Positions 1 through 61,171 are shown, numbered from the stretch's first letter. The stretch: 64,000 nt of DNA from a virus (IMGVR_UViG_3300047323_000678), one strand, 5' to 3'. Made by a program: numbers and translations. The notes: generated by a model not told the origin, from the sequence alone.

Positions 1-567
1 AACGAATGTGATTTAAACAACATTGATATTTCTAATATTTCTGAGATAAATAGTCTATTTTTTGATTCTGACTTTAATGGAGATATCAGTAAATGGGATA
101 CATCTAAAGTTATTAATATGAGTAATTTATTTAATAATAGTGCATTTAATGGAGATATAAGCAAATGGGATGTATCAAATGTTGAAAAAATGAGCAGTAT
201 GTTTAGAGAATCAAAATTTAACGGCGATATATCAAATTGGGATGTTTCAAAAGTAAGAAGGATGTATTCAATGTTTAGGGAATCCAAATTTAATGGCGAC
301 ATATCTAAATGGGATGTTTCTAAAGTAAATGATATGCAAGGGATGTTTGCTATGGCTAAATTTAATAGAGATTTAAGTGATTGGAAGCCATATAATTTAA
401 GTTTATTATATGAAATATTTTATAAATGCCCAGCTCCTGTTCCTTATTGGGCAACAATAAAAGATAAAGAGCAAAGAAATAAAGTAATGAATAACTTTCA
501 TTTACATCAAAAATTACAAGAAGAATTAATTGATAATCAACTTAATACAAAAAAGCTTAAAATATAA
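1..567 (+). CDS. DUF285/BspA-like repeat protein, 5' end outside the window
   Basis: Frame open from base 1 (NECDLNNIDISN); five 24-aa FNGDISxWxxSxVxxMxxMF repeats, PYW motif, ends KKLKI. Confidence 0.85.
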   Translation, partial: NECDLNNIDISNISEINSLFFDSDFNGDISKWDTSKVINMSNLFNNSAFNGDISKWDVSNVEKMSSMFRESKFNGDISNWDVSKVRRMYSMFRESKFNGDISKWDVSKVNDMQGMFAMAKFNRDLSDWKPYNLSLLYEIFYKCPAPVPYWATIKDKEQRNKVMNNFHLHQKLQEELIDNQLNTKKLKI

Positions 568-627
568 AGTTAATTTTGATAATTAATTTTATTTCATTAA
601 AATTATTATAGATAATAAGGAATAAAA

Positions 628-1855
628 ATGACTAACCACAATGATGCAGTTAACAAAGTATTAGAAAAATTATTTAAGATACCAGAATTCGCTTTTAAAA
701 AAGAGGATAATCTATTATTCTTACTAAAAGAACTTGAAAAATGTAATGTAAAGGTTACGATTAAGCCTGATGTTTTTAATGAAAAAAGAGAGGCAGTAAT
801 TCAAGTTTTAACTAAACAAAATGAAAAATTATTTTCAATTCATCAAATGCCAGATGGATTTAGTCCAAATTATAGAGTAAAGGTTAATGATAATACAGTA
901 TCTTATCAAGTGGCCAATCAAATGTTTAATGAGGCTAATATGGAAGCATTAATGGCGGCTGTAGAAAACCAAATGGATACGAATGTTCAAAATAAATTAG
1001 AATTAAATAAAAGAGAAGAGGATAAAAGACTACAATCAGTATTAGAGCATTTTAAGGTACAAATGTATAATAATCCTCCAGGTGGTATATTAAATAATAA
1101 TCAAACAGGAAGCCAAAATATTAGTGAATTATTTAAATATCTAATGAAAAATGCACCTGAGAGTTTGTTTTCTAAGGATGAAAAACCCCATCTTTATTAT
1201 GTGGCGAAACTAGATGATGGAGAAGCTAAGATCCAAATGCATTCAGATTCGTTATATGGAACTAAGACTCCTAGCATTACATTTAGCAATAAAGAAGGTA
1301 AAGAAATATTTGCTTTACAAAAAGAATATGATCAATTTAATGAATTCTTTTCATTTGATATGTATATTGATAAAAAAAGAGTTGATGGATATGAAAGCAG
1401 TTTAATATTAGCCTCAATACCAACTATAAAACTATATAATCAAATTGTTAATTCAATAACAAACACTCTAAATGAAATAAAACAAAGAGACATAGAAACA
1501 ACAAATAATTATATTACAATCTGTAACAGATACTTTTAATAAACCAGTAAAAACTACAGAAGAACTCACTTTAGACGATTTTAAGATAGGAGATGTTCTT
1601 CCTCCACATTTACAAAAACTTCAAGAAGAAAAATTAATTAAAAAACCTGAAGAGATTCAAGAGGTTGTAAAAGAATCAGTGAAAGTTAGCGAAGAAACTC
1701 AAGAAATTATTGTACAGAATGTAATAGAAAATTCTGTTGTAGAAGATGCCGTAATAAAACCTAAAACAACAGCAGAGAATATAATCAATAAAATTGGAGC
1801 TATTCGTAATAGAATTTTTAATAATTCATCTACAAATAAAAATAAAATGAATTGA
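628..1855 (+). pseudogene. Hypothetical protein split by a +1 frameshift near 1496-1539 (or sequence error)
   Basis: ORF 628..1539 stops at TAA; the +1 frame is open 1496..1855 with no usable ATG and reads ILQSVTDTFNKPVKTTEE...IINKIGAIRNRIFNNSSTNKNKMN. Confidence 0.65.
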
Positions 1856-1893
1856 TTTTAAATGTTTTAAAATATCAAATTTAAAATTAAAAT

Positions 1894-1915
1894 AAGCCCC
1901 AATTAGGGGCTTTTT
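1894..1915 (+). terminator. Intrinsic terminator
   Basis: AAGCCCC-AATTA-GGGGCTT followed by a T run. Confidence 0.8.
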
Positions 1916-1967
1916 ATTGCCTATTTTTTTTGATTTGATAAAATTAAATAAATTTCAATATAAAAAT

Positions 1968-2702
1968 ATGAAAAAGAAAATAGCACCTAAAACAAAACAA
2001 TCTTTAATTAATCTAATTCAAAAAGAAATAGATAAACATGGTTATGAATGTGATTTGAATCATATTGATGTCTCTAATATTAAGGATATGGAGCATTTAT
2101 TTAGAGAAGCTCATTATAATGGAACCATTTCACAATTTAATGGAAATATATCAGAGTGGGATGTTTCAAATGTGACTAATATGGCTTGTATGTTTTGGGG
2201 ATCTGAATTCAAAGGTGATATCTCAAAATGGAATATATCTAAAGTAAAAAAAATGGGAGCCATGTTTAGGGATTCAAAATTTGATAACGATATTTCCGAT
2301 TGGGATGTATCAAATGTCTCAGAAATGATAGGTATGTTTTATGAATCACAATTTAATGGAGATATATCTCAATGGGATGTATCTAATGTTAAAAATATGA
2401 GTCATATGTTTTATATATCTCAATTTAATCAAGACATATCAAATTGGAATGTTTCAAATGTTGAGGACATGACAAAAATGTTTTGCAGATCGCAATTCAT
2501 TTTTAATTTATCTAATTGGAAGCCATTTAATTTAAACGAATATGAATATCTTTTTAGTAATTGCAAAGCTAAAATTCCTTATTGGACTAAATTTGATGAT
2601 AAAGAAAAGCGCAATATGGCTATTAATAAATATTGGATAGCCAAAGATTTACAAGACGAATTATCAAATACTCAATCATTATCAAAAAAAATGAAAATAT
2701 AA
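1968..2702 (+). CDS. DUF285/BspA-like repeat protein
   Basis: Six 24-aa repeats, [10 protein letters not shown] cap, PYW motif, KKMKI tail; ATG 1968 preferred because it aligns with paralog starts. Confidence 0.85.
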   Translation: MKKKIAPKTKQSLINLIQKEIDKHGYECDLNHIDVSNIKDMEHLFREAHYNGTISQFNGNISEWDVSNVTNMACMFWGSEFKGDISKWNISKVKKMGAMFRDSKFDNDISDWDVSNVSEMIGMFYESQFNGDISQWDVSNVKNMSHMFYISQFNQDISNWNVSNVEDMTKMFCRSQFIFNLSNWKPFNLNEYEYLFSNCKAKIPYWTKFDDKEKRNMAINKYWIAKDLQDELSNTQSLSKKMKI

Positions 2703-2717
2703 ATAAAGGATTAAAAT

Positions 2718-3359
2718 ATGAAACCTACAATTATAGCTCAAGATAGAGAACATTTAATTAAATTAATAAAAAAAGAGATTGAGTTAAATGGAAACCAATG
2801 TGATTTGAACCATATTGATGTCTCTAATATTACTGATATGAGTTATTTATTTGCAAATTTATCATTTAATGGAGATATTTCAAAATGGAATGTATCTAAT
2901 GTGATAAGTATGCACGGTACATTTTATAATGCCGAATTCAATGGGGATATAAGTAAATGGAACACCTCAAAAGTAAAAGATATGAAAAGAATGTTTCATG
3001 AATCTGATTTTACTGGTGATATTAGTGATTGGAATGTATCAAATACTATGAATATGGAACAAATGTTCACAGACTCAAAATTTAATGGCGATATTAGCAA
3101 ATGGAATGTATCAAAAGTTGAATATATGGATTATATGTTTGCAAGCTCTAAATTTACTGGTGATATTTCCATTTGGAAGCCACATAAATTAGAAAATATT
3201 GATAGTATTTTTAATGAATGTTTAGCACCTGTTCCTTATTGGGCAAAAATAGTAGGTTATAGTGCAAGAAACAAGGCAATTGATGCGTATCATTTAATGA
3301 ATGAATTAAATAATGAGTTAAGCAATAATAGTAAATTAGATAAAAAAATGAAAATATGA
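2718..3359 (+). CDS. DUF285/BspA-like repeat protein
   Basis: Five repeats, same cap and tail; AAGGA RBS. Confidence 0.88.
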
Positions 3360-4141
3360 CATCAAAAATAATAGCTAAAGATAGAAATCATTTAAAAGAA
3401 CTGATTAAAAACGAAATAGATAAGCATGGTTATGAATGTGATTTGAATCATATTGATGTTTCTAATATTACTGAGATGGCATTGTTATTTGATAACTCCA
3501 AATTTAATGGCGATATTAGCCTATGGAATACTTCTAATGTGAAAGATATGAGTTTTATGTTTTATAAATCTAGATTTAATGGAAATATTAGCCTATGGAA
3601 TATCTCTAATGTTACACATATGGTAGCAATGTTTGAAGGTTCTGTATTTAATGGAGATATATCTAAATGGGATACTTCTAAAGTAGAAAATATGATGCGA
3701 ACTTTTAAAAAATCAAAATTTAGAGGTAATATATCACAATGGAATACTACTAAAGTTACCAATATGAGCGAAATGTTCTCAGATTCTAAATTTAATGGTG
3801 ATATTAGTAAATGGAATGTTTCAAATGTTGCTCTTATGAGCAGCATGTTTCATAAATCTATTTTTAATGGTGACATTTCTAAATGGGATGTAAACAATGT
3901 TTATAGTATGACTGGAATGTTTTCTAAATCAAAATTTAACAAGGAGTTAACAAATTGGAAACCAGTTAATTTAGGATTTTGGGAGAATATGCTTGATGGC
4001 TGTAATGCACCAATTCCTTATTGGGCTATGATTGAAGATAAAGATGTTAGAAATAAAGCAATTAATAGTTATGCCTTAACCCAGGAATTACAAAAAGATT
4101 TATCTAAAAATCATGTACAAACAAAAAAACAAAAAATCTAA
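3356..4141 (+). CDS. DUF285/BspA-like repeat protein
   Basis: Seven repeats; ATGA overlap with the upstream paralog. Confidence 0.88.
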
Positions 4142-4146
4142 TTAAT

Positions 4147-4737
4147 ATGAAACCTACAATCATAGCTAAAGATAAAGAGCACCTTAAAGAATTAATTCAA
4201 CACGAAATTGATTTAAGTGGAACTCAATGCGATTTAAGCCACATTGATGTATCAAATATTACTGATATGAGTGATTTATTTTCACATTCTAAATTTAATG
4301 GTGACATATCAAATTGGGATGTGAGTAATGTAAAGAATATGGAATTTATGTTTGAACGATGTAGTTTTAATGGAAATATATCTAAATGGGATGTTTCTAA
4401 TTTAATAAACATGAGATGTATGTTCACATATGCAAATTTTAACCAGGATATATCAAATTGGGATGTTTCTAAAGTAGAAACTATGCAACTTTTATTCTAT
4501 AAATCTTTATTTAACCAAGATTTATCAGATTGGAAGCCATATAATTTGAATAAACTAAAAAGCATACAGGAAACTTTTGATGACTATAGTTCAGTAATTC
4601 CATATTGGTATGAATACAATAATACAAAAGAGAGAAATGAAGCTATTGAAAATTATTGGATGAAAAAGAATTTACAGAAAGAATTAGAGAATGACTTATT
4701 ATCAGATAAATCATCCAAAAAGCAGTCTAAAATATGA
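4147..4737 (+). CDS. DUF285/BspA-like repeat protein
   Basis: Four repeats, same cap and tail. Confidence 0.88.
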   Translation: MKPTIIAKDKEHLKELIQHEIDLSGTQCDLSHIDVSNITDMSDLFSHSKFNGDISNWDVSNVKNMEFMFERCSFNGNISKWDVSNLINMRCMFTYANFNQDISNWDVSKVETMQLLFYKSLFNQDLSDWKPYNLNKLKSIQETFDDYSSVIPYWYEYNNTKERNEAIENYWMKKNLQKELENDLLSDKSSKKQSKI

Positions 4738-4822
4738 AATCTTTACATTTTATTTTATTGATATAAATTGAAAATTATTACATATTAAAAAAATGAAAAT
4801 ACTTTAAAAAATAATAAATGAA

Positions 4823-4984
4823 TTGAAGTTATATAAAGAACATAATCCGTCTTGCAAATGCAATAAGATAGATCCATGCAAATGCTTATGTCACAAGAAT
4901 CCAGGAGTTATGCACATAATTAATTGTTGTATATTAAAAAAATGTAATGTTTGTCAAAAGAGTTATAGAGTAACTAAAGGTTAA
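4823..4984 (+). CDS. Possible Cys-rich miniprotein (53 aa)
   Basis: TTG-start ORF below the track cutoff: LKLYKEHNPSCKCNKIDPCKCLCHKNPGVMHIINCCILKKCNVCQKSYRVTKG; no clear RBS. Confidence 0.3.
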   Translation: MKLYKEHNPSCKCNKIDPCKCLCHKNPGVMHIINCCILKKCNVCQKSYRVTKG

Positions 4985-5119: not shown

Positions 5120-5965
5120 ATGAAAAACAAGTTATTTTTGTTGTGTGCAGATATTTTAAAAAATATAAAAGGTAATAAGCCAAAATCCACAGTAATAGCA
5201 AAGAGCAAAGAACATTTAAATCAATTAATTCAATTAGAAATTAAAAAGAATGGTTATGAATGTGACTTGAATCATATTGATGTCTCTAATCTTACAACCC
5301 TTAGAGAAGTATTTTATAACTCTAATTTTAATGGGAATATATCTAAGTGGAATACATCTAAAGTTAAAGATATGAGTAATTTATTTCTCAATGCAAAATT
5401 TAATGGAGATATCAGTGAATGGGATACATCTAGTGTTGAAATTATGCATAGTATGTTTGAAGGATCTAAATTTAATGGGGACATATCAAATTGGAATACA
5501 GCTAATGTTAAAACAATGATGCAGATGTTTTATAGGTCAAAGTTCAATGGAGATATCTCAAAATGGAATACATCTAATGTAATGAACATGAGTTCAATGT
5601 TTTCTATGTCAAATTTTAATAATGATATCAGTAATTGGGATGTTTCAAATGTTAAAGGAATGCCTTTTATGTTCTCTAGGTCAAGATTTAATGCAGATAT
5701 TAGCCAATGGAATGTTTCTAAATTAGAAGTTATAGAAGGAATGTTTCAAGATTCTCAATTTAGTGGTGATATATCAAATTGGACACCATATTCATTAGAA
5801 AATTTTACAGATACTAAAGATCCATTTTTAAATTCTAATTGTAAAAAACCTTATTGGTATAATTATGCAGATAAAAAGACTAGAGAAATAGCAATTAATG
5901 CTTATCAGTTAGAAAAAGAATTAAAACATACTAAAAATGAACAAGGTAAAAAATTAAAAATTTAA
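5120..5965 (+). CDS. DUF285/BspA-like repeat protein
   Basis: Seven repeats; AAGGAG RBS; ends KKLKI. Confidence 0.88.
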   Translation: MKNKLFLLCADILKNIKGNKPKSTVIAKSKEHLNQLIQLEIKKNGYECDLNHIDVSNLTTLREVFYNSNFNGNISKWNTSKVKDMSNLFLNAKFNGDISEWDTSSVEIMHSMFEGSKFNGDISNWNTANVKTMMQMFYRSKFNGDISKWNTSNVMNMSSMFSMSNFNNDISNWDVSNVKGMPFMFSRSRFNADISQWNVSKLEVIEGMFQDSQFSGDISNWTPYSLENFTDTKDPFLNSNCKKPYWYNYADKKTREIAINAYQLEKELKHTKNEQGKKLKI

Positions 5966-6059
5966 TTACTGTACAAGAGCAAAGATAGCCGATATAATAA
6001 TTTATCTTCTAATGCTTAGTATCTCATAGGCAATCAATTTTTACAGACAGGGAATAATC

Positions 6060-6506
6060 ATGGACTATTGTTTATATAATGCAATTAAAACCCCAGACGG
6101 AACCATTCTTTGGTGCGAAAGTGGTCACGACTATAAAACTCATACAGATAGTGTATCTGGTGAAGAATATATGAATGATGGAACAGGGTATGGTATTCGG
6201 CGTTCTGTAAATAATGTCCCAGCAGAAGATCTTTCCATTTGGAATACTGATCCATTTGAAAAAATTAGGACAGCCAAATTTTGGGGATCTTATGGAAAAG
6301 ATGGAAAAAGTCCTAAGCGTATTCTTTCTCTTGAAGAGATGGAGGAAGATCATATCCATGCTATTTTGAAAACCCAAACACAAATTAGCACTATTCTTAA
6401 AGAATTTTTTGTAAAAGAACTTGAATACCGTGTTGAGAAATTTAAAGAAAAACTCGATGAAGAACTTCCTACAAATAATTCAAAAGATAATAAGCCTAAG
6501 ATTTAG
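6060..6506 (+). CDS. Hypothetical phage-type protein with basic C-terminal tail
   Basis: NAIKTPDGTIL...WGSYGKDG motifs resemble a family I recall from large phages (unverified); ends KLDEELPTNNSKDNKPKI. Confidence 0.7.
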   Translation: MDYCLYNAIKTPDGTILWCESGHDYKTHTDSVSGEEYMNDGTGYGIRRSVNNVPAEDLSIWNTDPFEKIRTAKFWGSYGKDGKSPKRILSLEEMEEDHIHAILKTQTQISTILKEFFVKELEYRVEKFKEKLDEELPTNNSKDNKPKI

Positions 6507-7397: not shown

Positions 7398-9278
7398 ATG
7401 GAATCAAACTATATTATAAAACAAGGTAATATTATTTATCCTTTTGAATTAGAAGATCCAAATAAAAAGTATTTACTTAATCCTAATATCATAGAAAATG
7501 AAATTAATCGTATTTATTTTCGTCAAGATATCCAGCTTTTTTTGGGCAGTAATGTAGAAATTGAAAAAAGAACTGGCTCTACCTATAATATGGAATTATT
7601 TGGTGAGATGTTATCATATATGAATTTATTTCTTTATGATGATAAAGAATATATTAATCTGTATCCTAATGGATTTCATACAGAAAATAAAGTATTTATT
7701 CCAGTTGAATTGTTTAACAAGATGCTTGAACAAGAAAAAATAGATAAGGAATCAATAATAAACAAATCACCAGTTATGTTTATAAAATCATTAGTTTCTG
7801 TATTAGAAAATCTATATCATTTAAATTTTTCAAGTGAAGAAAAACAAAAAATTCTTCATACACAACTTAAAAAACTAAATTTAAACAATGAATCTCTAAT
7901 TAAAATTTTAGATTATGCCGATAACGATGAAGATTTTGGTAAACTTAAATTTATTCCAACAAAAGAATTAAAAATAAGTTTATTAAAGAATGATTTTTCT
8001 CCTGGAACAGTTGAATATCTTTCAGTATCAGATGATTCAAGCTTTATTGATATAGTGTTATCAAAATCTAAAGAGTTGAAAGATGATACTCATCCTTTCC
8101 ATAAACTTAAATCTAAAATTGTAGAAAATATTGACATAGAATCAAATAGTTTTAGTAGTGAATCAATTCAAGAATTAGTAAATAATATTTCGCAGCTTAA
8201 TCCTAAAGATTTAATGAGACTTAATTCATCCCTGTCGTCTATGGCACAAAATATTATAAAAAATCATACTGATAATGATCCAAATATAATACATATTGTA
8301 AAAGATTTATCTAGAGAATGGCTACCTTCAATAATGAAATTAAAAGATGGTCCATTTGCTAAAAATTTTCTTGATTTACTTAAGAAATTAAATGATTTTG
8401 ATTCCAAGTTATTAGAGAAAGGTAGACAAAATTTAGCAATAGAGATGATATCTTATGAATCTTGTACGGAAGAAAGAAAAGAATTAATTATCGGACTTTC
8501 AACCATGATGCGTTATAGAAGAAATAAAATCATTTATGTTCATAAAGAAAAAGAAAATAATGAAAATATGTTTTATGATGCTTGTGGCAAAGGTGATTTG
8601 GAAACAATTAAAAGATTATTAAATCTTGATAATGAAGAAATTAGTGTTGATATTTCATCTAAAAATAATACTGGCTTTATTGAAGCATCTAAAAAAAATC
8701 ATACAAATGTTCTTTTATATTTAATAGCAGGAGAAAACTCAAAACAACATATTGATATCAAAGATGTTTGGAAATACATAAAATACAGAAAAAATATAGA
8801 AGTGTTTGATGAACTATTATCAAAAAATTTAATTGATGATAAAAAAATAATTTTAGATTTAGCATTTAATTTTGAAAAAATTGATTTAGTGAATGATTTA
8901 CTAAATAAGAAATTAGATAGAGAAGATATAAATAAAATGTTTGATATCTTAAATGAAACTAATCGTTCAGATAATGCTAGTTTTCAAATGAGTAAAATAT
9001 TTATAGATAAAATTATGGAATATCCTAATGTAAAAGAAGAATTAGGAAATAAAATTGATGAATTGTTCTTTGCTGCTGCTAAAGGGAATAATTTAGAAAT
9101 ATTAAGAACTTTAGTTTTTGATTATAATATTGTACTATCAGATTCTTATAAAAAAAATTTAGAAAAACATTATCCACAGATTAATAATTTCTTTAATTTA
9201 AGAGAAATAAACAAAGAACTTAATTTGGAAATGAATAGTAATTTAGATAATAAGAAAGTCAAAAAAAATAAGATTTAA
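7398..9278 (+). CDS. Large protein with C-terminal ankyrin-like repeats
   Basis: FYDACGKGDLETIKRLL, FIEASKKNHTNVLLYL and FFAAAKGNNLEILRTL repeats; tail KKVKKNKI. Confidence 0.75.
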   Translation: MESNYIIKQGNIIYPFELEDPNKKYLLNPNIIENEINRIYFRQDIQLFLGSNVEIEKRTGSTYNMELFGEMLSYMNLFLYDDKEYINLYPNGFHTENKVFIPVELFNKMLEQEKIDKESIINKSPVMFIKSLVSVLENLYHLNFSSEEKQKILHTQLKKLNLNNESLIKILDYADNDEDFGKLKFIPTKELKISLLKNDFSPGTVEYLSVSDDSSFIDIVLSKSKELKDDTHPFHKLKSKIVENIDIESNSFSSESIQELVNNISQLNPKDLMRLNSSLSSMAQNIIKNHTDNDPNIIHIVKDLSREWLPSIMKLKDGPFAKNFLDLLKKLNDFDSKLLEKGRQNLAIEMISYESCTEERKELIIGLSTMMRYRRNKIIYVHKEKENNENMFYDACGKGDLETIKRLLNLDNEEISVDISSKNNTGFIEASKKNHTNVLLYLIAGENSKQHIDIKDVWKYIKYRKNIEVFDELLSKNLIDDKKIILDLAFNFEKIDLVNDLLNKKLDREDINKMFDILNETNRSDNASFQMSKIFIDKIMEYPNVKEELGNKIDELFFAAAKGNNLEILRTLVFDYNIVLSDSYKKNLEKHYPQINNFFNLREINKELNLEMNSNLDNKKVKKNKI

Positions 9279-9318: not shown

Positions 9319-9903
9319 ATGAAAAAGAAAAAAGAGCAGGAATCATTAGGATTCATTTTTGGATATAAAGAAGGTTCTTCATACAAAAATGAAAACAACC
9401 AAGATGTAATTAGTATTTCTTTCAAAAGTGGTATTTCAAAGAAATTTCCATCTAAATTTGAAAAGTTTAAAGATTTTTGGGCACAGGAAATATTTTTAGG
9501 ACAGGTATCAGAGCTTTATGTAAATTTAGAGTTCTTCAAAGATGCTTTTAATAAAGAACTAAAAGAAATTACAAATGATTTAACTTCTGAGTATAGCTAC
9601 TATTCTGAAGTATTTAGTCATAGAAAATATCATTTTGATTATGATATTAGCCAAGAGCAATTGGCAGCTTTAACCGCTTTTTCAATGGCTCATCTCTATA
9701 CTACTTACCAGAAGTGGGAGAATCAAACAGCTTTAGAACAAGCATTACAGGAATGCATCGGTGATTTCTTTAAAAACGATAAGCGTTCTTTATTAGAGGT
9801 TTATGAGAATTATAAACAAGTTAGTGAATTTATTTATAATAAAGATCTTGAAGAAACACTAGGTGAATTAAGTAGTGACAAGACGAAACCTAAAATGAAA
9901 TAA
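9319..9903 (+). CDS. Hypothetical protein with basic tail
   Basis: 194-aa ORF ending NKDLEETLGELSSDKTKPKMK. Confidence 0.7.
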   Translation: MKKKKEQESLGFIFGYKEGSSYKNENNQDVISISFKSGISKKFPSKFEKFKDFWAQEIFLGQVSELYVNLEFFKDAFNKELKEITNDLTSEYSYYSEVFSHRKYHFDYDISQEQLAALTAFSMAHLYTTYQKWENQTALEQALQECIGDFFKNDKRSLLEVYENYKQVSEFIYNKDLEETLGELSSDKTKPKMK

Positions 9904-11839: not shown

Positions 11840-12085
11840 ATGGATTTTTTTATGACTATTCTTTTCTTATCATTTATCTCATTAATCTTAAGTGTAGTTG
11901 TCTATTTCCTTTTAGGAGTAAATATTCCAGGATGTGCTCGCTTTAATAGCATTCCTTTTGGTGGTTGTGGCTATAGTGACGAAACTACCATCTTTAGCCT
12001 TATCTTTTGGTTTATTATATTTTTTAGTATAATTTTATTAATAAGATTAATAATAAAAAAGAAAAATGCTAACCAAGATAGATAA
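11840..12085 (+). CDS. Small two-TM membrane protein
   Basis: Two hydrophobic segments around a CARF...GGCG loop. Confidence 0.6.
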   Translation: MDFFMTILFLSFISLILSVVVYFLLGVNIPGCARFNSIPFGGCGYSDETTIFSLIFWFIIFFSIILLIRLIIKKKNANQDR

Positions 12086-12671
12086 ATATAGATATTCTAA
12101 CCTACCGCAAGTAAAGATTAACGAAGCATTTTGCAATGCTTGTAGAACAGGAGATTTAGAATTAGTTAAATATTTACTATTGGATAAAAATATTATAAAT
12201 GCTCAAATTGAGCATGGAAATTATATCGGAGCTAGAATCGCTTGTAGTGGAAAGCATAATGATATTCTTAAATTTTTATTAGAAGCAGAAGAGTTAAAAA
12301 AGAAAACACCAATCAATACAGGTAAAGGTATATTCTTAAGGGTATGTGTAGAACAGAACAATACAGAAATGATGGATTATTTTCTGAAAAATAATCCAAA
12401 AATGAACCTCAATCAAAATGATGATGAAATATTTAAATCATTAATGTCAAATTTTAATAAAAATAAAGACATGATCAAATATTTAATTGTTAATTATAAT
12501 TTACCAAAAACTCAAAATATAGAAGATTTTCTTGAAGAAAAAAATAGAGGCATTGAAGAAAAAAAATTAGTTAATGAATGGTTTCAAAAAAGAACTTTGA
12601 TGGAACAATTAGATAAAGAATTTAATCAAACAAAGTTAACACCAACCAAATCTAAAAAAATTAAAGTTTGA
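12066..12671 (+). CDS. Ankyrin-repeat protein
   Basis: FCNACRTGDLELVKYLL and ARIACSGKHNDILKFLL repeats; ends KSKKIKV with the stop codon supplied by the IS end. Confidence 0.8.
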   Translation: MLTKIDKYRYSNLPQVKINEAFCNACRTGDLELVKYLLLDKNIINAQIEHGNYIGARIACSGKHNDILKFLLEAEELKKKTPINTGKGIFLRVCVEQNNTEMMDYFLKNNPKMNLNQNDDEIFKSLMSNFNKNKDMIKYLIVNYNLPKTQNIEDFLEEKNRGIEEKKLVNEWFQKRTLMEQLDKEFNQTKLTPTKSKKIKV

Positions 12672-15307: not shown

Positions 15308-15856
15308 ATGGAAAACGAATTAGATGAAGAATTGCAATATGAGATTGATTGGCAATTGCGACAAGAGTGCTATAATCTAGGAAATATCAAAGACATATTG
15401 GATTTAATCAGAAAAGGTGCAAATATACATCATTTTGATGAAGAATCAATGAGTTCACCATTAAGTGTTGCTGCTTCAATGAACAATGTAGAACTTGTAG
15501 AGTTCTTTTTAAAAAGAGGTGTTTCTCCCAAAGAACACAATAATTTAGCTCTAGAAGAAGCTTCAAGATATTACTGTCTTGATACAATTCCATTATTAAT
15601 TAAAAATGGAGCAATAGTGAAACCTGATATGTTTTTGAATGCATATAATGCAGGAAATTGGGAAGTTGCCCAATACTTTATTGAAAATTTCAACATTATT
15701 TTATCTGAACAAGTTCTAGAAAGAATCAAAAATGATGATCAAAGCTTTTTTAATGAAGTAAATCGCATAGTTAAAACAAGAATTCTTCATTCTGATTTAA
15801 GTAAAGAACTATCTTGTTCAGAAGAAGTAGAGAATAATAAAAAACTAAAAATCTAA
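15308..15856 (+). CDS. Ankyrin-repeat protein
   Basis: SPLSVAASMNNVELVEFFLKRG, ALEEASRYYCLDTIPLLIKNGA; tail NNKKLKI. Confidence 0.85.
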   Translation: MENELDEELQYEIDWQLRQECYNLGNIKDILDLIRKGANIHHFDEESMSSPLSVAASMNNVELVEFFLKRGVSPKEHNNLALEEASRYYCLDTIPLLIKNGAIVKPDMFLNAYNAGNWEVAQYFIENFNIILSEQVLERIKNDDQSFFNEVNRIVKTRILHSDLSKELSCSEEVENNKKLKI

Positions 15857-17608: not shown

Positions 17609-18022
17609 ATGAGCATCTTTGATAGTTTTTTGTCTTGTATTTATGAACTTAACTATTCTCATGATCAAATGAGTAAGCCTAGTCGTGATCATACTATTAT
17701 TCAACTTGGTTGTTTGGTCATGGTTATTTCCATGATTTTTCCAATGGCTATTTGCATTGATACAAATCTAGACTATCCACGAACTGCATGGTTGATGTTT
17801 AGTATTTGCATGGCTATTGCCTGTGCATTTCGTATCCCATATAAAATGGGTAAACTCAATAAATATGCAATTAAAAAGGTAGAAAATAACAACAATTTTA
17901 ATCGCTCAAAGAATGATTCTTTTGATGAATTAGTACGAAAGATTAATTATTTAAAAGAAGAATTAGATATAGAACTACCAGTAAATAAGCCGCAAAAAAT
18001 ACCTAAAAGAATCAAAATTTAA
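17609..18022 (+). CDS. Paralog of the 16783 TM domain ending in the basic tail instead of a J-domain
   Basis: FLSCIYELNYSHDQMSK...AFRIPYKMGKLNKY matches [17 protein letters not shown]...[14 protein letters not shown]; ends EELDIELPVNKPQKIPKRIKI. Confidence 0.75.
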   Translation: MSIFDSFLSCIYELNYSHDQMSKPSRDHTIIQLGCLVMVISMIFPMAICIDTNLDYPRTAWLMFSICMAIACAFRIPYKMGKLNKYAIKKVENNNNFNRSKNDSFDELVRKINYLKEELDIELPVNKPQKIPKRIKI

Positions 18023-18162
18023 CAAAAGTCTAATAATTCGAGTTTGCTTTATTTAAAGGTTCTTGGTTTGGATGCAATAAAGATCCTAAAGCAGAACAAA
18101 CATTTAAAACAATTAATTCAGCATATGAAAATCTTTGCCAATGCATAAATCATTATGAATAA
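18023..18162 (+). pseudogene. Orphaned, internally deleted J-domain remnant
   Basis: YLKVLGLDA then, in another frame, NKDPKAEQTFKTINSAYENLC; the helix II/HPD segment is missing. Confidence 0.65.
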
Positions 18163-18790
18163 ATTTTTTTCTTATATTTATGAAATTAATTGGCGGTTCT
18201 TACGCTTGCAAAATCAGTCTGATTTTCCATTTTTGCCATTAATGACTATTCTTTTATGGATTCCTGTGGGGATTATCGGGTGGTTTTTGATTTGTCGTAT
18301 GGAATTGCCACCTTGGTTAATTATATTGACAAGTATTCCATGCCTTGCTTTTTCTTTATTTTTTAGTGATGATTTTATTCAAGAAAAATTTAAGAAATTT
18401 GAATCGGAAAAAGTTAAATTTGGTAAAGAAGTAGATGAGAAATATATTGAATTGCAAAAAATTTGCTATTCTCATGCTAGAGATACAAAAAAAATTAAAG
18501 AACTTGCAAATTTTGTCTTCCCAAATTTGTTGCAGCTACATAGAAAAAAAGAAGTAGAAGAAAAAATTTATCATTGCTTTAGATCAGTAGTTTCCAAAGA
18601 TAATTTGGATACAATGTATTATTTTATTATTGATTTAAATGTTAAAGTATCAGAAGAATACAGTGAAAATTTAAAAAAACAATATCCTGAATTAGAAAAG
18701 TTATTTAATTTTAATAATTTAAATCATGAGTTAAGTAATGATTTAAAAATTAATAAGCCTAAACAAAGTTCAAAAAAAATTAAAATTTAA
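18155..18790 (+). CDS. TM protein fused to ankyrin-type C-terminal module and tail
   Basis: N-terminus FFSYIYEINW resembles the two preceding genes; C-terminus closely resembles that of 7398..9278. Confidence 0.7.
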   Translation: MNKFFSYIYEINWRFLRLQNQSDFPFLPLMTILLWIPVGIIGWFLICRMELPPWLIILTSIPCLAFSLFFSDDFIQEKFKKFESEKVKFGKEVDEKYIELQKICYSHARDTKKIKELANFVFPNLLQLHRKKEVEEKIYHCFRSVVSKDNLDTMYYFIIDLNVKVSEEYSENLKKQYPELEKLFNFNNLNHELSNDLKINKPKQSSKKIKI

Positions 18791-47856: not shown

Positions 47857-49410
47857 TTAATTACTATTTAATTTTGGTGTTTTAGTAGCATAGTTAATAA
47901 ATTTATTTCTTAATTTTTGGATAGAATTAGTAGCAAAATTCTTATTTGAATCATTATGAAATTCTTTACATTTTTCATCATAAAGATTTTGTAAAGTTAT
48001 TTTTACATCTTCAATTTTAACTGTTACATTTTCAGCCTTAAATTGATTAACCATATTATTGTGAAAGGCAATATCATTTTTATAAGATATAGGATTAGCA
48101 CCAGCATACCAAATTGTTTTTAATTCATGAAGAGTCATCATAGAACTAGCTTTCTTAGCTCTACTTATAAAGCTTTGATACCAATCTTCTCCGGCAGTAT
48201 TTTTAATGTTATTCCAAAGTAAATCGGCTTTTTCAGAATTTATATTTTGTGGTAAGAAGAATGTTTTTTCATCTTCATTAAATTCTATATTAAAAAGTAA
48301 CTTAAACTCCTCAAAATACTTACTTTTAATAACTCTGGACACTAAGAGTATACGGGAAAGGCCTACTTTACTAGCTTTATCACTAATTGAATTAATTCTC
48401 TCTGGACTAAGGTTTTCATTTGGTAAGGTGTCTATAATTTCTTTTAAATATTCCAATCCGCAAACTGTATTATGATTAAAATTGGTTAAATTATTTACAA
48501 AATCATTAAAGTAATTAAATTTATGATTTTCTTCACAACGAGCTTCAATCAGCGCATCTATATATTCGTGCATATTTTGCTGAGTATAGGCTCCTTTATT
48601 AATATTTTCATTTCTTAACAAAAGTAAACTACTAACATCTGCATAAATTTCTTTATCGAGAGTTATACATTCATCAATAAAATTTAGAATAGAAAGATTT
48701 TTATCAGAACCAGTAATTGTTTTTTCCTCAAACTGTTCACCCAATTTTTTATGGGGATACCACGGTGATGTTTTTATTAATTCCCTTCCCTTAGTTAAAA
48801 AATCAGAGATTCCATATTCCCAAGATATTTGTTTATTTTCTATATTAGTATATTGAAGAGAATGTGATAATTCATGATAAATAGAAAGTCTAATAGTTTC
48901 TTCCAAAGACATTTTCTCTAAAAGTTTACTAATAAATGGATAACTTTTTAGATTATCATTATCATTCCCATAAAATTCTAGGCTAATATTTATTCTTTTT
49001 ACTTTAGGATCATAAGTAGCGCCTGTTTCTAATAAACCTGACCTTACTTTTCTTATAGCTGGAATTATAAATTTTAAAATGCCTTTTCGGTGCTTTAACC
49101 ATTTATTAAAATTTGAATCAACATTTAAAGAAATTTCTATATCTTTATCTTTAATATTATTTTTATCCAAAGTTTTATTAATTTCATTAGTTATATTATC
49201 AATATGTTGAACAACTACTTTTTGCGATTCAGGTAAATTTTGATTTTTAAAAAATATTTTCTCAATAGTTGAAAATATTTTTAATGCCCAAGAATCTTCG
49301 TTAAGCTTGTCATTATTTGCATAATAATAAGAATAATGACAATTATTATTGCCTAGATTAGTAATATAATTTGTTGCTTCAATTGAGTTTGCTGATAATT
49401 TAATACGCAT
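47857..49410 (-). CDS. Large hypothetical protein with a zincin-like HExxH motif
   Basis: SIYHELSHSLQ and later EIYAD; ends NSIQKLRNKFINYATKTPKLNSN. Confidence 0.65.
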   Translation of the reverse strand: MRIKLSANSIEATNYITNLGNNNCHYSYYYANNDKLNEDSWALKIFSTIEKIFFKNQNLPESQKVVVQHIDNITNEINKTLDKNNIKDKDIEISLNVDSNFNKWLKHRKGILKFIIPAIRKVRSGLLETGATYDPKVKRINISLEFYGNDNDNLKSYPFISKLLEKMSLEETIRLSIYHELSHSLQYTNIENKQISWEYGISDFLTKGRELIKTSPWYPHKKLGEQFEEKTITGSDKNLSILNFIDECITLDKEIYADVSSLLLLRNENINKGAYTQQNMHEYIDALIEARCEENHKFNYFNDFVNNLTNFNHNTVCGLEYLKEIIDTLPNENLSPERINSISDKASKVGLSRILLVSRVIKSKYFEEFKLLFNIEFNEDEKTFFLPQNINSEKADLLWNNIKNTAGEDWYQSFISRAKKASSMMTLHELKTIWYAGANPISYKNDIAFHNNMVNQFKAENVTVKIEDVKITLQNLYDEKCKEFHNDSNKNFATNSIQKLRNKFINYATKTPKLNSN

Positions 49411-49419: not shown

Positions 49420-49926
49420 TTATATTTTTAAATTAGGCTTAGAACTACAACTATCATATTTGCTGCGTATATCATTAATACGATCTTGAGGTGAAATTTT
49501 TTTTTCGTTTTCTTTAGATAAATTACTAAATAGATAAGCTAATCCTCCAAATCCACCAAGAATCATTGCAATACTTCCATACATTAAATAATTTAAGTCG
49601 TTTATTTCCGAAGAAGGCGGCATTACAATTTGTGAGGATTGTTCATCACTTGGAGAATAACCATTAGCTTTAGATACATTATTTGCCATCTGAGCAGCAA
49701 GGAAGGCAATATCAGTAGAAGTTTTATTTTCAGCTAAATGGGATGTAACAGGTGAAGATGATTCATGTGTTACATGATGTGATGAATGGATCGCAGAATG
49801 AGCAGCAGAATGTGCAGCTACATGAGATGCTGAATGACTAGAAGCATGTCCAGCAACACCAATAGCTTGAGATAAACTAGAAACACTAGCCAACAAACCA
49901 ACTGTTATAAATTTTTTTATTTTCAT
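49420..49926 (-). CDS. Signal-peptide protein with His/Ser/Ala-rich segment, TM helix and basic tail
   Basis: GHASSHSASHVAAHSAAHSAIHSSHHVTHE; YGSIAMILGGFGGLAYLF; ends KPNLKI. Confidence 0.7.
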   Translation of the reverse strand: MKIKKFITVGLLASVSSLSQAIGVAGHASSHSASHVAAHSAAHSAIHSSHHVTHESSSPVTSHLAENKTSTDIAFLAAQMANNVSKANGYSPSDEQSSQIVMPPSSEINDLNYLMYGSIAMILGGFGGLAYLFSNLSKENEKKISPQDRINDIRSKYDSCSSKPNLKI

Positions 49927-53257: not shown

Positions 53258-53752
53258 ATGAATTTAGAAGATACTAAAAATGAACTTTTCAATATTAGGA
53301 AAGATATTGAGAATTTAAAATTATTAGAAGAAATTTATCTTTTAGCTAAATTCTGCCATGATGCCAAAAATATTCTTCGTAGAGAATCAACTGAAGAAAT
53401 AAAAATATATTGGATAGATAATGGAAGAAATATTCTTCAAAAATTTAAAACAGAATATATTTATAATTCTATAGTCGGAAATAAACATCCTCAACAAGAT
53501 GATTTACATCGTCAATTGCGTGTTAGTAATGGCGAATTTAGAACAGATGAATATCTTGAAGAGTATAAACTAGTTGCGGGTATTATGGAAAAGAAAATCG
53601 GAGATAAAAAACTAGTTATAAACAAAGAAACCACTCCTGAAGAGTTTTTAAAGCAAATTGATCCTACTTATCCAATACTATATACACATCATTTTGTAAG
53701 TAGAGATTTAACTATAAATCAATTAGAAAAAAAACCTAAAACTAAGCTTTGA
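53258..53752 (+). CDS. Hypothetical protein with basic tail, paralog of 55357..55905
   Basis: EEIYLLAKF...QLRVSNGEFR...EEYKLVAG...TTPEEFLKQ shared; ends KKPKTKL. Confidence 0.75.
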   Translation: MNLEDTKNELFNIRKDIENLKLLEEIYLLAKFCHDAKNILRRESTEEIKIYWIDNGRNILQKFKTEYIYNSIVGNKHPQQDDLHRQLRVSNGEFRTDEYLEEYKLVAGIMEKKIGDKKLVINKETTPEEFLKQIDPTYPILYTHHFVSRDLTINQLEKKPKTKL

Positions 53753-55356: not shown

Positions 55357-55905
55357 TTGAATATTTTTGATATACTAAAATTATTCAAAAATGGAAACAA
55401 TATGTTCAGAGAAAACACACAACAGGAACTTAATAATATTCGTCATGCAATTCTTGAACTCAAAGAAATGGAAGAAATCTATTTGTTAGCCAGATTTTCG
55501 CAAGATGCAAAATATATGTTGCAAAGTATGTTAAAGAAAAAAAGTGAAATAGAAATACATATTGTTTCCAAAGAAACCGATATTCTTAAAAAGTTTAAAA
55601 CAAAATATCTTTATCATTCTAATGATGGAAATAGTTATCCAGAAGAACAATCGTTATACACCCAACTGCGTTGCAGTAATGGAGAATTTAGAGAAAAAAA
55701 TTATATTGAAGAATACAAGATAGTAGCAGGGTTACTTAGTGAAAAAATGCAAAAAGGACAAATTATCATTATAAATGAAGATACAACTCCCGAAGATTTC
55801 TTAAAACAGTTATGTCCTGATTATGCAATTAAATATAGCCATTATGAATTAAATAAAGATTTGTCTATAAATAATTTGCAACAAAAGCCAAAGGTAAAAC
55901 TTTAA
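55357..55905 (+). CDS. Hypothetical protein with basic tail, paralog of 53258..53752
   Basis: Clear alignment; ends QKPKVKL; true start may be internal. Confidence 0.75.
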   Translation: MNIFDILKLFKNGNNMFRENTQQELNNIRHAILELKEMEEIYLLARFSQDAKYMLQSMLKKKSEIEIHIVSKETDILKKFKTKYLYHSNDGNSYPEEQSLYTQLRCSNGEFREKNYIEEYKIVAGLLSEKMQKGQIIIINEDTTPEDFLKQLCPDYAIKYSHYELNKDLSINNLQQKPKVKL

Positions 55906-56633: not shown

Positions 56634-57416
56634 ATGGAAACAATAGAAGAGTTATACAAAAGATCGGATTATGAATTTGATCAAAAATTATTCCAAGCTA
56701 CTAAGAATGGGGAGGTAGCATTTCTTGAAGAATTTGTTAATTCTAATATTAAAAAAGACCATATGTTCACTTCAACAGTTTGGCATATGCTGGAACATGC
56801 TTGTGTAAATAAACAGTCAGAAATTGTTAAATATATTATTGAAACAGAATGCTTAATAAAATTAATAAATAGATCAAAGGCTTTTGAAAGATGTTTTCAA
56901 GATAGTTGCAAATCAGGCAGTCTAGATATCATAAAATACTTATTAGATTCAAAAGATGAAGAATTAGATATCATAACTATCGCTTTTGGATGTAGGGAAT
57001 TAATTGAACATCATCATCAAGATGTTCTTAAATATATCTTAAATCATGAGAAATCCAAAGAGTTCTTAAATTATGAATTAAGATTCCCAGATCTTTTGCA
57101 GGTTTCTGCTCAATTTAATAATGTAGAAGCATTAAAATATCTTATAACCTTTCCAAGATTAATTGAAAATGGGAAATCATATATTTATGAACATGCAGAT
57201 AAAACACTTTGCTTTGCTATTGCTTATGAAAATGTAGAAGTCTCAAGATTTCTTATTTGTGAAATTGATTTAAAAAAAACAAAAGATGTGAGAGATGCTT
57301 TAAAAAATAAACCTAATAAAGAAATAACAAAAATATTTAAATTAAAAGAATTAAATGAATCTCTTCAGAAAGAACTAATATCTAAAGGAAATTCTGCAAA
57401 AAAAATTAAATTATAA
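56634..57416 (+). CDS. Ankyrin-repeat protein
   Basis: LFQATKNGEVAFLE, LEHACVNKQSEIVKYII, FQDSCKSGSLDIIKYLL, LQVSAQFNNVEALKYLI; tail SAKKIKL. Confidence 0.85.
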   Translation: METIEELYKRSDYEFDQKLFQATKNGEVAFLEEFVNSNIKKDHMFTSTVWHMLEHACVNKQSEIVKYIIETECLIKLINRSKAFERCFQDSCKSGSLDIIKYLLDSKDEELDIITIAFGCRELIEHHHQDVLKYILNHEKSKEFLNYELRFPDLLQVSAQFNNVEALKYLITFPRLIENGKSYIYEHADKTLCFAIAYENVEVSRFLICEIDLKKTKDVRDALKNKPNKEITKIFKLKELNESLQKELISKGNSAKKIKL

Positions 57417-59329: not shown

Positions 59330-59556
59330 ATTTATTGGGAGTTTATGAGCTTATTTTTGGTTTAACTATTCACCAAACCAAGGCTCATGGAAAAGTTTTG
59401 AAAAATTTGAGAAATCTCAAAAGATGCTAAAAGAACATGCGGAAAAAGATTTGAAGGATTTTGCTAAGGCTATTCCAATGGTAGTTATGGAAACTTAAAC
59501 TGCAAATAAAAAAAGCAGATTATGATAGTCTGCTTTTTTTTATTTAAAATTTATTT

Positions 59557-59913
59557 TTAGGAATGAGCATAATAACGGCGTGCTACATCTGACCAATTTA
59601 AATTATGAAATATGGAAAATTGACTATCACTATTTAATGCTTCAATAAAATGATGTGCTTTACCCTCAAAACTTTCATCAGTAGGAACTCCCATATCTCC
59701 TTCAAAAATACAACCCTCATAAAAAGGTTCTGAAGTAAGTCTAACATTTGAAATAACAAAAAATGAATCACCATCTTCATCACTACATCTAGTTATATGC
59801 ACGCCATGATCTTTAGCAAGTGTCAACATATCTTTTTCTAAACTATCAAACTCTTCCCAATCTTCACCAATATTAGCGTGCTTAGTAATTCCTTTGCAAA
59901 TCCATACACTCAT
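59557..59913 (-). CDS. Hypothetical protein
   Basis: 118 aa, AAGGA RBS on minus strand. Confidence 0.7.
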   Translation of the reverse strand: MSVWICKGITKHANIGEDWEEFDSLEKDMLTLAKDHGVHITRCSDEDGDSFFVISNVRLTSEPFYEGCIFEGDMGVPTDESFEGKAHHFIEALNSDSQFSIFHNLNWSDVARRYYAHS

Positions 59914-60003
59914 AATAAATCCTTGTAAAAAACAAAGAATTATTTCAGAATTATTTTTTTGTCAAGTTAATTAAAAAAGCAGACCATGAAGATCTGCTTT
60001 AAA

Positions 60004-60255
60004 TTATTTAATTGTTTCGATAATAAAACTATCAGTTAGTGCCAATAAGTCATTAATGTCATCTGCAATACTAATCCAAAAAGTATGCTTTTCTTCAAAT
60101 GATTGGAACCTCTCAATATCTTGACATAAAGCAATCATTGTAGTGATACATGCACCTACTTCTTCAGCCGCAGGGTTTTTACTTTCAATAACGATATCTG
60201 TAAGTTTCTCAAATTTTTCTTCTAATTGAAATTCAGCTTTCTGCCAAGGGGTCAT
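60004..60255 (-). CDS. Hypothetical protein
   Basis: 83 aa, AAGGA RBS; followed by the reversed GCAGA terminator. Confidence 0.65.
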   Translation of the reverse strand: MTPWQKAEFQLEEKFEKLTDIVIESKNPAAEEVGACITTMIALCQDIERFQSFEEKHTFWISIADDINDLLALTDSFIIETIK

Positions 60256-60370
60256 AATTGTCCTTTATATTTTGCCTAATTATCAATTAAAAAATAAATA
60301 AGTCAACTATTCTTGAAAAAGAATTTTATTAATATAGAATTAACATAATAATAATAAAAATAGGATAATT

Positions 60371-61171
60371 ATGTCACTAAGCACTTTAGATAAAATTAAA
60401 TTAAAAACCCAACAAATTTTAGTAAAAACTGATGATTATTTAACCACTACTAAAAATGGAATGGATGCGAGCCATCATGGAATAATGTTTGGAGCAGCAT
60501 CTATAATTGCTGGAATTACAGGAGTAATGGCTATTGTTGCTGCTCCAACATTACCAGCTATAGCAGGAGTGGCAGCATTAGCTAGTATTCCAACATTTGC
60601 AGTTGGTGGTGCAGCAGTGAATTTAGCAGGAGCTACTCTTTTAGGCGGTGGGGCAGCAAGTATAGCATTTACTATTTTTGCAAAAATGTATAAATCTGCA
60701 AAAGGTGAAACAAATTACCATGTTAACGGTGAATTAGAATGCTTGCCTAAAGGTAGTAATGGTGATTTATCTAAAATAGTTAAAGTAAACAGAAAAGAAG
60801 TTTTAAAATCTATTGAGAATGAAACATTTTCTCAAAAATATGAAGCCGTTAAAATAAGAGATTTTCATGATCCTAATGGTCATTTTATGCTAGAAATTCC
60901 TAATGCTCATACTTTAGTTGTAAAAGGTAATGAAAAATATTATTCAAGTACAGCAGGTATTTTAGACAGAGTTGCATCTGAAGCATATATTGAAGGACCA
61001 TACTTAGCAAAACCTGCTCAAGAATCATGGGCAGAAGATTGTAAAACAATTAGAAGAGAATGTTTTAAAGAAGCTAAAAATGCTGATTTAAAAGCATCAA
61101 TAATGAATAGAATTAATAACTTTAGAGAAAAAATTGAGGGTGCAGCACCTAAGAAAAAATACACAGTTTAA
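60371..61171 (+). CDS. Protein with long Ala/Gly-rich hydrophobic hairpin and basic tail
   Basis: About 70-aa hydrophobic stretch GIMFGAAS...IAFTIF; ends RINNFREKIEGAAPKKKYTV. Confidence 0.7.
   Translation: MSLSTLDKIKLKTQQILVKTDDYLTTTKNGMDASHHGIMFGAASIIAGITGVMAIVAAPTLPAIAGVAALASIPTFAVGGAAVNLAGATLLGGGAASIAFTIFAKMYKSAKGETNYHVNGELECLPKGSNGDLSKIVKVNRKEVLKSIENETFSQKYEAVKIRDFHDPNGHFMLEIPNAHTLVVKGNEKYYSSTAGILDRVASEAYIEGPYLAKPAQESWAEDCKTIRRECFKEAKNADLKASIMNRINNFREKIEGAAPKKKYTV

Follow-up and report, generated by a model that had tools for sequence, protein, structure and literature searches.

What makes proteins with unrelated bodies, encoded along one AT-rich stretch of DNA, end in nearly the same residues, and what might read such an end? 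The question is raised by IMGVR_UViG_3300047323_000678, a record catalogued as viral; the whole stretch that we analysed, here called the window, is 64,000 nucleotides long. A reading made from its sequence alone (the sequence-only reading) had proposed that more than 20 of its unrelated proteins share a C-terminal tail, consisting of an amphipathic helix, a short polar linker and a lysine-rich end, and that this tail routes them to a single machine. Here we describe the tail, its distribution and the proteins that carry it, and weigh the view that it may be a signal for export from a bacterial cell.

A shared tail on about one-fifth of window genes

The window has a GC content of 26-32%, and 81 of its 99 greedy non-overlapping open reading frames (ORFs; each ≥60 amino acids, aa) lie on the + strand. 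Fifteen of these 99 ORFs end in K-x-K-[ILV]-stop, against 0.20 expected from the frequency of this 4-mer at internal positions (0.2%); none of 29 shadow ORFs ends in this way. Five further ORFs finish in K-[ILV] after a looser basic stretch, giving 20 in total, so that the tail is found on about one-fifth of window genes (strict and looser ends are distinguished in Table 1). A hidden Markov model (HMM) of the tail, trained only on loci from relatives (L003, L070 and L073), was then applied with a cutoff of ≥8 bits and with matches anchored at the C-terminus. Twelve window ORFs matched, each match ending at the C-terminus. When the last 40 residues were shuffled 100 times with their composition preserved, the mean was 0.01, and random 40-residue pieces taken from inside the proteins also gave 0.01. 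The concern that such ends might be no commoner than in shuffled C-termini can thus be set aside.

All of the ORFs that the sequence-only reading had listed lie where it placed them, and their ends are as described except for that of 9319-9903, a degenerate copy that ends in KTKPKMK and lacks the terminal aliphatic residue. Pfam agrees that six of the bodies are DUF285 and five are ankyrin, and places the remaining tail bodies in no family; TM-like (transmembrane-like) segments are present in both proteins that it had called membrane proteins (17609 and 18155). Inspection also bore out its statement that the tail is missing from threonyl-tRNA synthetase, YaaA and both TnpB proteins; the window's nucleoside hydrolase, DnaJ-domain protein and Imm11 likewise do not carry it. 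The protein encoded by 46220-47803, which ends in KKKKM, falls outside the module (HMM score of -0.6 bits). Lastly, a variant helix, I..[IL]R.K[FYI], precedes a basic end in the four genes for which it had been claimed: 47857(-), 49420(-), 60371 and the frame-shifted continuation of 628-1539. This class is real but small, with five C-terminal cases in all loci of the lineage against 0.5 expected.

The last eleven codons of the tail use both AAA and AAG for lysine, the terminal residue is specified by seven codons (ATA, ATT, ATC, CTT, CTA, TTA and GTT), and TAA, TGA and TAG all serve as stops; the 50 bases downstream are unrelated among tail ORFs. Because codons, stops and downstream DNA vary, the constraint must act on the peptide and not on the DNA, which rules out a promoter, terminator or recoding signal laid over gene ends. 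An alternative genetic code is ruled out as well, since TGA and TAG each end tail ORFs directly after the motif; the code is therefore code 11.

Anatomy of the module

We aligned 51 tails, found in the window and in three loci of close relatives, counting from the C-terminus. The module spans 22-30 residues and follows the pattern L-x3-L-x2-(E/D)-L, then about 8 polar residues as a linker, then K-K-φ-K-φ-COOH. Near the end, position -1 is I/L/V/M, -2 is K, -3 is aliphatic in 69% of tails and Pro in 10%, -4 is K/R, and -5 is K/R in 80%. The linker (-6 to -12) is rich in N/S/T/Q, with N at -10 in 22 of the 51, and the helix places L at -13, E at -14, L at -17, E/D at -18 and L at -21. The commonest distance from helix core to end is 12 residues in this alignment; in the larger pooled set used for tests against known signals (n=173), 137 tails have the L..[ED]L core at a distance of 11-17 residues from the end. 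The last 25 residues carry a net charge of +2.0 and the last 10 one of +3.1; within these last 10, the pooled tails contain 591 K compared to 39 R.

An AlphaFold2 model of the DUF285 protein 3356-4138, made with 32 tail-bearing homologues, reached a mean confidence score (pLDDT) of 94.9. It predicts a repeat solenoid followed by a single long helix (residues 229-252) that ends in ELQKDLSK, beyond which the last nine residues are unstructured (pLDDT 44-58). As modelled, the module starts as an acidic-faced helix and runs through a flexible spacer into an end in which basic and aliphatic residues alternate and the carboxylate is free. Peptide ends of this last kind are usually captured as an added β-strand.

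The replicon is a bacterial chromosome

Shine-Dalgarno motifs precede 43% of starts, against a background of 10%, and gene expression is therefore prokaryotic. The window protein encoded by 46220-47803 is on record on a 2,230,803-bp contig, and a 78%-identical orthologue on a contig of 2,224,172 bp. Using an RpoD query taken from an AT-rich relative, itself reached through a window TnpB, we found a full-length primary sigma factor RpoD (P0176, 689 aa) on a 2,230,803-bp contig and a 95%-identical one on a 2,224,172-bp contig; the two 2,230,803-bp records can safely be taken as one contig. Because this 2.23-Mb contig encodes RpoD, the replicon is not that of a phage. It is a chromosome, that of an AT-rich and uncultured Gram-negative bacterium sampled in a rhizosphere metagenome. 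In relatives (74-78% identity), RpoD is surrounded by housekeeping genes, with PilB/PilT/PilC, ThyA, RadA and GAPDH among the products, and loci of close relatives encode a Tar-like chemoreceptor and proteins with Sec leaders. The RpoD protein is at most 49% identical to those of 400 evenly sampled Pseudomonadota genomes, and GTDB genomes gave one distant match only, an Agitococcus contig from a metagenome-assembled genome, without tails.

The window does have phage-like features, namely tRNA arrays, a truncated threonyl-tRNA synthetase, TnpB, many small ORFs on one strand and matches to PHROGs families, all of unknown function; in addition, part of the same genome is classed as a provirus by IMG/VR. 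On a phage reading, the tail would direct cargo into the virion of a huge phage (packaging or ejection) or into a phage nucleus. We rejected both options and consider this account barely credible, given a 2.23-Mb bacterial chromosome with its own primary sigma factor and tail genes that occur in several distant regions and next to housekeeping genes. The large ORFs of the 64 kb that were scanned against Pfam and PHROGs included neither a capsid nor a portal nor a terminase gene, although no search was aimed at chimallin. Megablast of the window against INPHARED matched only a tRNA, and single-protein scans of IMG/VR gave no matches. A eukaryotic giant virus is ruled out by the frequency of Shine-Dalgarno motifs together with RpoD on the contig.

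The tail elsewhere in the genome and lineage

An IMG/VR scan with a DUF285 alignment returned one tail-rich record, IMGVR_UViG_3300047323_000673 (180,807 bp, labelled 'provirus'; hereafter G402), with 5-23 tails per locus, whereas none of the 64 other DUF285 loci in IMG/VR, which belong to giant viruses and to contigs of other kinds, had more than one tail. G402 has no overlap with the window and encodes, letter for letter, three proteins recorded on the 2,230,803-bp contig; judged by these identities, it is another part of the window's genome or of that of an identical strain. Over half of its 237 ORFs carry the tail: 122 end in [KR]-x-K-[ILVM] and 140 in K-[ILVM]. Zero tails occur in the 130-160 kb stretch, which holds ordinary genes (NAPRTase, a solute-binding/VWA protein, a TPM phosphatase and an adhesin-like protein), and a GGDEF protein (156 kb) and a photolyase (173 kb), reported just beyond this stretch, are also without it. 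With about 20 in the window and 140 in G402, there are at least 160 verified tail proteins in about 245 kb of the 2.23-Mb genome.

G402 (loci L157-L166) consists of a chromosomal effector island and about 50 kb of ordinary bacterial genes, with no virion gene among the proteins scanned. Its provirus label is probably a misclassification. Some caution with such labels is warranted, as virus databases are listing as proviruses effector islands of this kind, with their tRNA arrays, truncated aminoacyl-tRNA synthetases and many small orphan ORFs.

In the relative with 78% identity, 9-12 of the 18-27 ORFs in syntenic loci end in the tail. Across accessory loci of the genus-level group, 51 of 176 ORFs have it, compared to 9 of 210 in loci of other AT-rich relatives, a set that takes in housekeeping regions (p=1e-11). 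The tail is specific to this lineage. A 37-position profile, too short for significance in a library-wide search, gave three matches with E≤1e-3 among 1.84 billion proteins, of which two are true DUF285 tails, and no matches among PDB sequences. The third match, P0283, is the profile's best hit: a fragment made of repeats similar to eukaryotic BEACH domains (...YPVFPWVL..Y....LDLSLPSNYRDLSK), which resembles the YP....F...ELxxEL part of ankyrin-type tails, probably a chance likeness inflated by its five repeats. A second basic end, K-x-K-P or KPKP-like (NSKKNKVKP, PKIKKIKP, LLKKPKP), recurs in relatives (L015; L073, 13817-15986; L025, 8942-9604), sometimes on orthologues of the window's variant-helix genes, and may be a sister spelling of the tag.

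Unrelated bodies carry the same tail

Clustering by BLAST after removal of the last 30 residues sorted the bodies of tail proteins into 15 unrelated clusters in a first set (the window plus the loci of relatives) and 23 in G402. Eukaryote-like repeat families dominate: DUF285 (65), ankyrin (34) and DUF4116 (9) are joined by Api92-like, WGR-domain and AEP-like bodies and by many singletons. Tail proteins almost never begin with a Sec-like N-terminus. None of 51 did so in the first set, compared to 18 of 125 tail-less proteins (p=0.002), and 1 of 140 in G402, compared to 23 of 97 (p=3e-9); a few contain internal TM-like segments. Between orthologues, the pattern is kept while residues, linker and body change, as in ELNESLQKELISKGNSAKKIKL paired with ELNKTLNAELKSENASTKKLKL, or in a pair of only 26% body identity whose members end in ...KQRSKI and ...NKKLKL.

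These data bear on the alternative that the tail has no signal function and is a C-terminal cassette which recombination has spread among tandem paralogues and descent has preserved. Most copies do lie in tandem arrays of the few families just counted. However, the tail caps at least 23 BLAST-unrelated bodies, its sequence turns over while its pattern stays even where bodies have diverged to 26% identity, its helix-to-end spacing is constrained, and selection on function is indicated by the exclusion of the tail from proteins with Sec signals. We therefore regard simple descent of a cassette as very improbable.

Table 1. Window genes with the tail or its variant: coordinates, strand and C-terminal end (HMM, match to the tail model; Pfam, body assigned by Pfam)
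Coordinates	Strand	Product	C-terminal end	Support and remarks
1..567	+	DUF285 protein (5' end outside window; ORF 118-567)	strict, ...LQEELIDNQLNTKKLKI	HMM (22.6 bits), Pfam
1917..2702	+	DUF285 protein	strict, ...DLQDELSNTQSLSKKMKI	HMM (27.8 bits), Pfam
2718..3359	+	DUF285 protein	strict	HMM, Pfam; TGA stop
3356..4141	+	DUF285 protein	strict	HMM, Pfam; AlphaFold2 model in text
4147..4737	+	DUF285 protein	looser (KKQSKI), ...ELENDLLSDKSSKKQSKI	Pfam
5120..5965	+	DUF285 protein	strict, ...LEKELKHTKNEQGKKLKI	HMM, Pfam
6060..6506	+	orphan protein	strict, ...KLDEELPTNNSKDNKPKI	TAG stop
7398..9278	+	ankyrin protein, 626 aa	strict, ...ELNLEMNSNLDNKKVKKNKI	HMM, Pfam
9319..9903	+	orphan protein, helix and linker	degenerate, ...DLEETLGELSSDKTKPKMK	no terminal aliphatic residue
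9940..10536	-	orphan protein	strict, ...DLNENLNVNSPIGHKVKI	HMM
12066..12671	+	ankyrin protein	strict, ...QLDKEFNQTKLTPTKSKKIKV	Pfam
15308..15856	+	ankyrin protein	strict, ...DLSKELSCSEEVENNKKLKI	HMM, Pfam
17609..18022	+	small protein, one TM-like segment	looser (KRIKI), ...ELDIELPVNKPQKIPKRIKI	HMM
18155..18790	+	protein with two TM-like segments	strict, ...ELSNDLKINKPKQSSKKIKI	HMM
18862..19620	+	ankyrin protein	looser (KSNKL), ...TLTKDISSETNKIRKSNKL	Pfam
20523..21050	+	orphan protein	looser (QRSKI), ...NELELNIDKKEQLTKQRSKI	L003 orthologue: 26% body identity, tail kept
42322..42954	+	orphan protein	strict, ...VLNKILPINNNKTPKIKI	HMM
47857..49410	-		variant class, ...IQKLRNKFINYATKTPKLNSN	
49420..49926	-		variant class, looser (PNLKI), ...INDIRSKYDSCSSKPNLKI	
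53258..53752	+	orphan family	strict, ...VSRDLTINQLEKKPKTKL	
55357..55905	+	paralogue of 53258	strict, ...ELNKDLSINNLQQKPKVKL	HMM
56634..57416	+	ankyrin protein	strict, ...SLQKELISKGNSAKKIKL	Pfam
60371..61171	+		variant class, ...INNFREKIEGAAPKKKYTV	
628..1850	+	frame-shifted gene	variant class, ...IGAIRNRIFNNSSTNKNKMN	+1 frame runs on to this end

A candidate export signal

The proposal that one tail serves one machine for varied cargo is supported, apart from its phage options, by the enrichment and register of the tail, its exclusion from Sec-signal and housekeeping genes, its restriction to one lineage and its retention in orthologues. From these we infer a role in export and, one step further, the kind of machine that reads the tail. 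The reading that we favour, with a probability of about 0.5, is that the tail serves export or translocation as an uncleaved C-terminal signal independent of Sec, and that its nearest kin are the positively charged signals of type IV secretion systems (T4SS). Cargo would be made in the cytoplasm without a Sec leader and would carry a C-terminal helix ending in (E/D)L-x-x-(E/D)L, then a flexible stretch of about 8 polar residues rich in N/S/T/P, then the K-K-φ-K-φ strand with its free carboxylate. A single cytoplasmic receptor, most likely the coupling protein of a T4SS or an adaptor of it, would recognise both the exposed end and, at its fixed distance, the acidic helix, and would hand the protein to a channel for delivery into a host or prey cell.

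Several points weigh against this reading. The only secretion-related genes seen, those of type IV pili and of one type I system, are in relatives, and a search of the 181-kb G402 for the coupling ATPase (PF02534) gave no match, the rest of the 2.23-Mb contig not having been searched. The Agrobacterium T4SS consensus, R-x7-R-x-R-x-R, occurs in 0 of 173 tails, and the net charge of the last 25 residues is unlike that of the acidic, Glu-rich Dot/Icm class that binds DotM. A basic stretch with an aliphatic C-terminus also resembles a class of ClpX degron and the classical nuclear localisation signal, and the host or prey cell is itself only putative. A minor but real chance is to be given to a reader other than a canonical coupling protein: either an adaptor that clamps the carboxylate and the K-φ-K-φ strand by β-augmentation and measures the distance to the helix, or an undescribed secretion route of a deep-branching, fast-evolving lineage that would export at least 8% of its proteome. 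If so, no large effector set would be known to have an export tag with a sharper consensus. Three conserved tail-less neighbours considered as receptor candidates (51060-53155, 53821-55314 and 56063-56536) gave no lead to a family or fold.

Export could also proceed by type I secretion, with the tail read by an ABC transporter/HlyD/TolC system, as for ankyrin proteins of Orientia and Ehrlichia. Like the tail, type I signals (HlyA; Orientia ankyrin proteins) are C-terminal and uncleaved and have helix propensity, and 19 of 20 Orientia ankyrin proteins are exported by HlyBD (PMC4315096). The relative L063 encodes two PrtD-type ABC proteins, an HlyD adaptor and an outer-membrane factor, and the residues L, D, A, V, T, S, I and F make up 45% of the last 60 residues of our tails, inside the published range (PMC4315096). 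The same signals, however, are usually acidic and are poor in K, H, P, M, W and C over these 60 residues (PMC4315096), whereas in the tails these six residues amount to 25% and the isoelectric point is 8.3, with the last 10 residues strongly basic and rich in Lys; on this composition they do not belong to the type I class. The L063 genes form a complete-looking cluster (1233-9016 of JACCDU010716148.1, 785 kb), and the adjoining RTX protein (647 aa) ends in ...TANDFIL, a classical acidic-hydrophobic type I end and not KKxKI. We consider a type I reader unlikely.

Two further accounts place the reader of the tail elsewhere. In one, the tail is a degron that hands proteins to an AAA+ unfoldase/protease, much as the MuA-type C-motif-2 does to ClpX, or to a PDZ protease that processes C-termini, and a large accessory proteome is thereby kept short-lived. 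Degrons of the MuA class have basic residues and then a small or aliphatic end (RRKKAI), and the tail shares with them the aliphatic C-terminal residue after basic ones and a disordered end (the last nine residues of the model); its alternating K-φ-K-φ end with a free carboxylate would suit β-strand capture. ClpX is known to read unstructured C-terminal degrons of several classes (PMC12723719). A degron, though, does not account for an acidic helix conserved at a set distance, for a distribution confined to eukaryote-like repeat families in islands (whole accessory families, unlike the scattered regulatory substrates of ClpX) or for the exclusion from Sec-signal proteins, and it is hard to see at least 160 genes held under purifying selection merely to be degraded; we judge it improbable. 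In the other account, the tail is an address used on the host side after delivery, either for nuclear localisation (K-K/R-x-K/R) or for anchoring the protein to host membranes through its polybasic stretch. K[KR].[KR] is present in the last 6 residues of 142 of 173 tails, partly by construction of the regular expression used for selection, and ankyrin, leucine-rich-repeat-like and DUF4116 bodies are typical of proteins that act inside eukaryotic cells. Yet a nuclear localisation signal need not be terminal, whereas in these tails the K at -2 and the aliphatic residue at -1 keep a fixed place relative to the carboxylate, with the helix in register; other host-side signals are nearly absent (KKXX in 2 of 173, PTS1 in 5 and CaaX in 1), and the eukaryotic host is only putative. 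As the sole function of the tail this, too, seems a poor prospect, but export and a role after delivery are not exclusive, and a second role of this kind is possible.

Other genes in the window and in relatives

The protein encoded by 46220-47803 (527 aa) has a PEP-utilizer swivelling domain (phrog_11532, E=8e-49). It has only 39 relatives in 5.8 billion proteins, all of them metagenomic, and several (L008, L010, L011 and L013) are on phage-like contigs with genes for aminoacyl-tRNA synthetases, RNA ligase and dCMP deaminase. Two different TnpB (IS605 OrfB) genes occur in the window, at 12683-13975(-) and 33923-35605. Copies of the first, 55-67% identical and some of them fragmentary, are present in several AT-rich relatives, and this gene has been recently mobile, because it is placed differently in the syntenic locus L003. 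The TnpB scan also led to L019, on an AT-rich contig of 270 kb, where an intein interrupts a UvrD helicase (16105-19071, - strand).

Arrays of tRNA genes lie within the effector islands, in the window at 22689-24195 and 36004-36226 and in the relative's locus L070 at 5412-9677. The window's tRNAs comprise four tRNA-Leu(TAA), Met, Arg, Pro and one with a CTA anticodon, and L070 has 13 more. Despite the CTA-anticodon tRNA, TAG is a stop in 6060-6506, directly after ...NKPKI. A run of small tail-less orphans (51060-53155, 56063-56536) is 63-86% identical to its counterpart in a relative, compared to 26-73% for the surrounding tail proteins.

Comparison with known secretion and sorting signals

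The nearest likeness is to VirB/VirD4-type T4SS, including those of Bartonella. Most T4SS substrates have an uncleaved C-terminal signal with a few positive or hydrophobic residues, and the Bartonella Beps have a bipartite one, a BID domain followed by a positive tail (PMC6509941). The tails share the extreme C-terminal position, the cluster of positive charge with hydrophobics, anchored at the stop codon, and leaderless, modular effector bodies; as in the Beps, a structured upstream element precedes a short basic tail. They differ in using Lys and not Arg, without the arginine consensus, and upstream they have one helix of about 24 residues in the place of the 100-residue BID bundle of Bartonella. 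To our knowledge, no described T4SS signal has a consensus nearly as sharp.

The Dot/Icm signals of Legionella and Coxiella resemble the tail in their acidic residues at about -14 to -18, their stretch of small polar residues and a hydrophobic residue near the end, and in the hundreds of substrates of ankyrin and leucine-rich-repeat type, some 8-10% of the proteome. DotM, however, binds only net-acidic, Glu-rich peptides (PMC5802825), whereas the tails have a net charge of +2, with a Glu-rich block in only 38 of 173, and we rejected membership of this class. We know of no Dot/Icm counterpart of the strict K-K-φ-K-φ-COOH end. In the X-Tfe effectors of Xanthomonas, a single recognisable C-terminal element, the XVIPCD, is likewise found on unrelated effector bodies and is read by the coupling protein (PMC8740702); it is a folded domain of about 120 residues, in contrast to a module of 22-30 residues with a disordered end.

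Other sorting signals were rejected on direct counts or on structure. Sortase and exosortase signals (LPXTG, PEP-CTERM) place a TM helix and a basic tail after their motif; a hydrophobic 15-mer in the last 40 residues, as such a helix would require, occurs in 0 of 173 tails. The C-terminal domain of type IX secretion is a β-sandwich of 70-100 residues on proteins with Sec leaders, whereas the tail is a helix with a disordered 9-mer, and the proteins that carry it almost never have Sec-like N-termini. Endoplasmic reticulum retrieval signals (KKXX/KXKXX, scored as K at -3 plus K at -4 or -5), PTS1 (a final [SAC][KRH][LM]) and CaaX (Cys at -4) are rejected by the counts given above.

Together, these comparisons indicate that the tag is an unusually sharp variant of a known signal class, in an undescribed bacterial lineage. 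The C-terminal signals of the effector sets of Legionella, Coxiella and Rickettsiales are notoriously degenerate, so that the effectors themselves have to be identified by machine learning and reporter screens. A tag as crisp as this one would make the whole effector set of an uncultured lineage readable by eye. It also offers a defined peptide for finding a receptor by pull-down, co-folding or crystallography, and allows a test of whether recognition needs the free carboxylate and the fixed helix-to-end distance.

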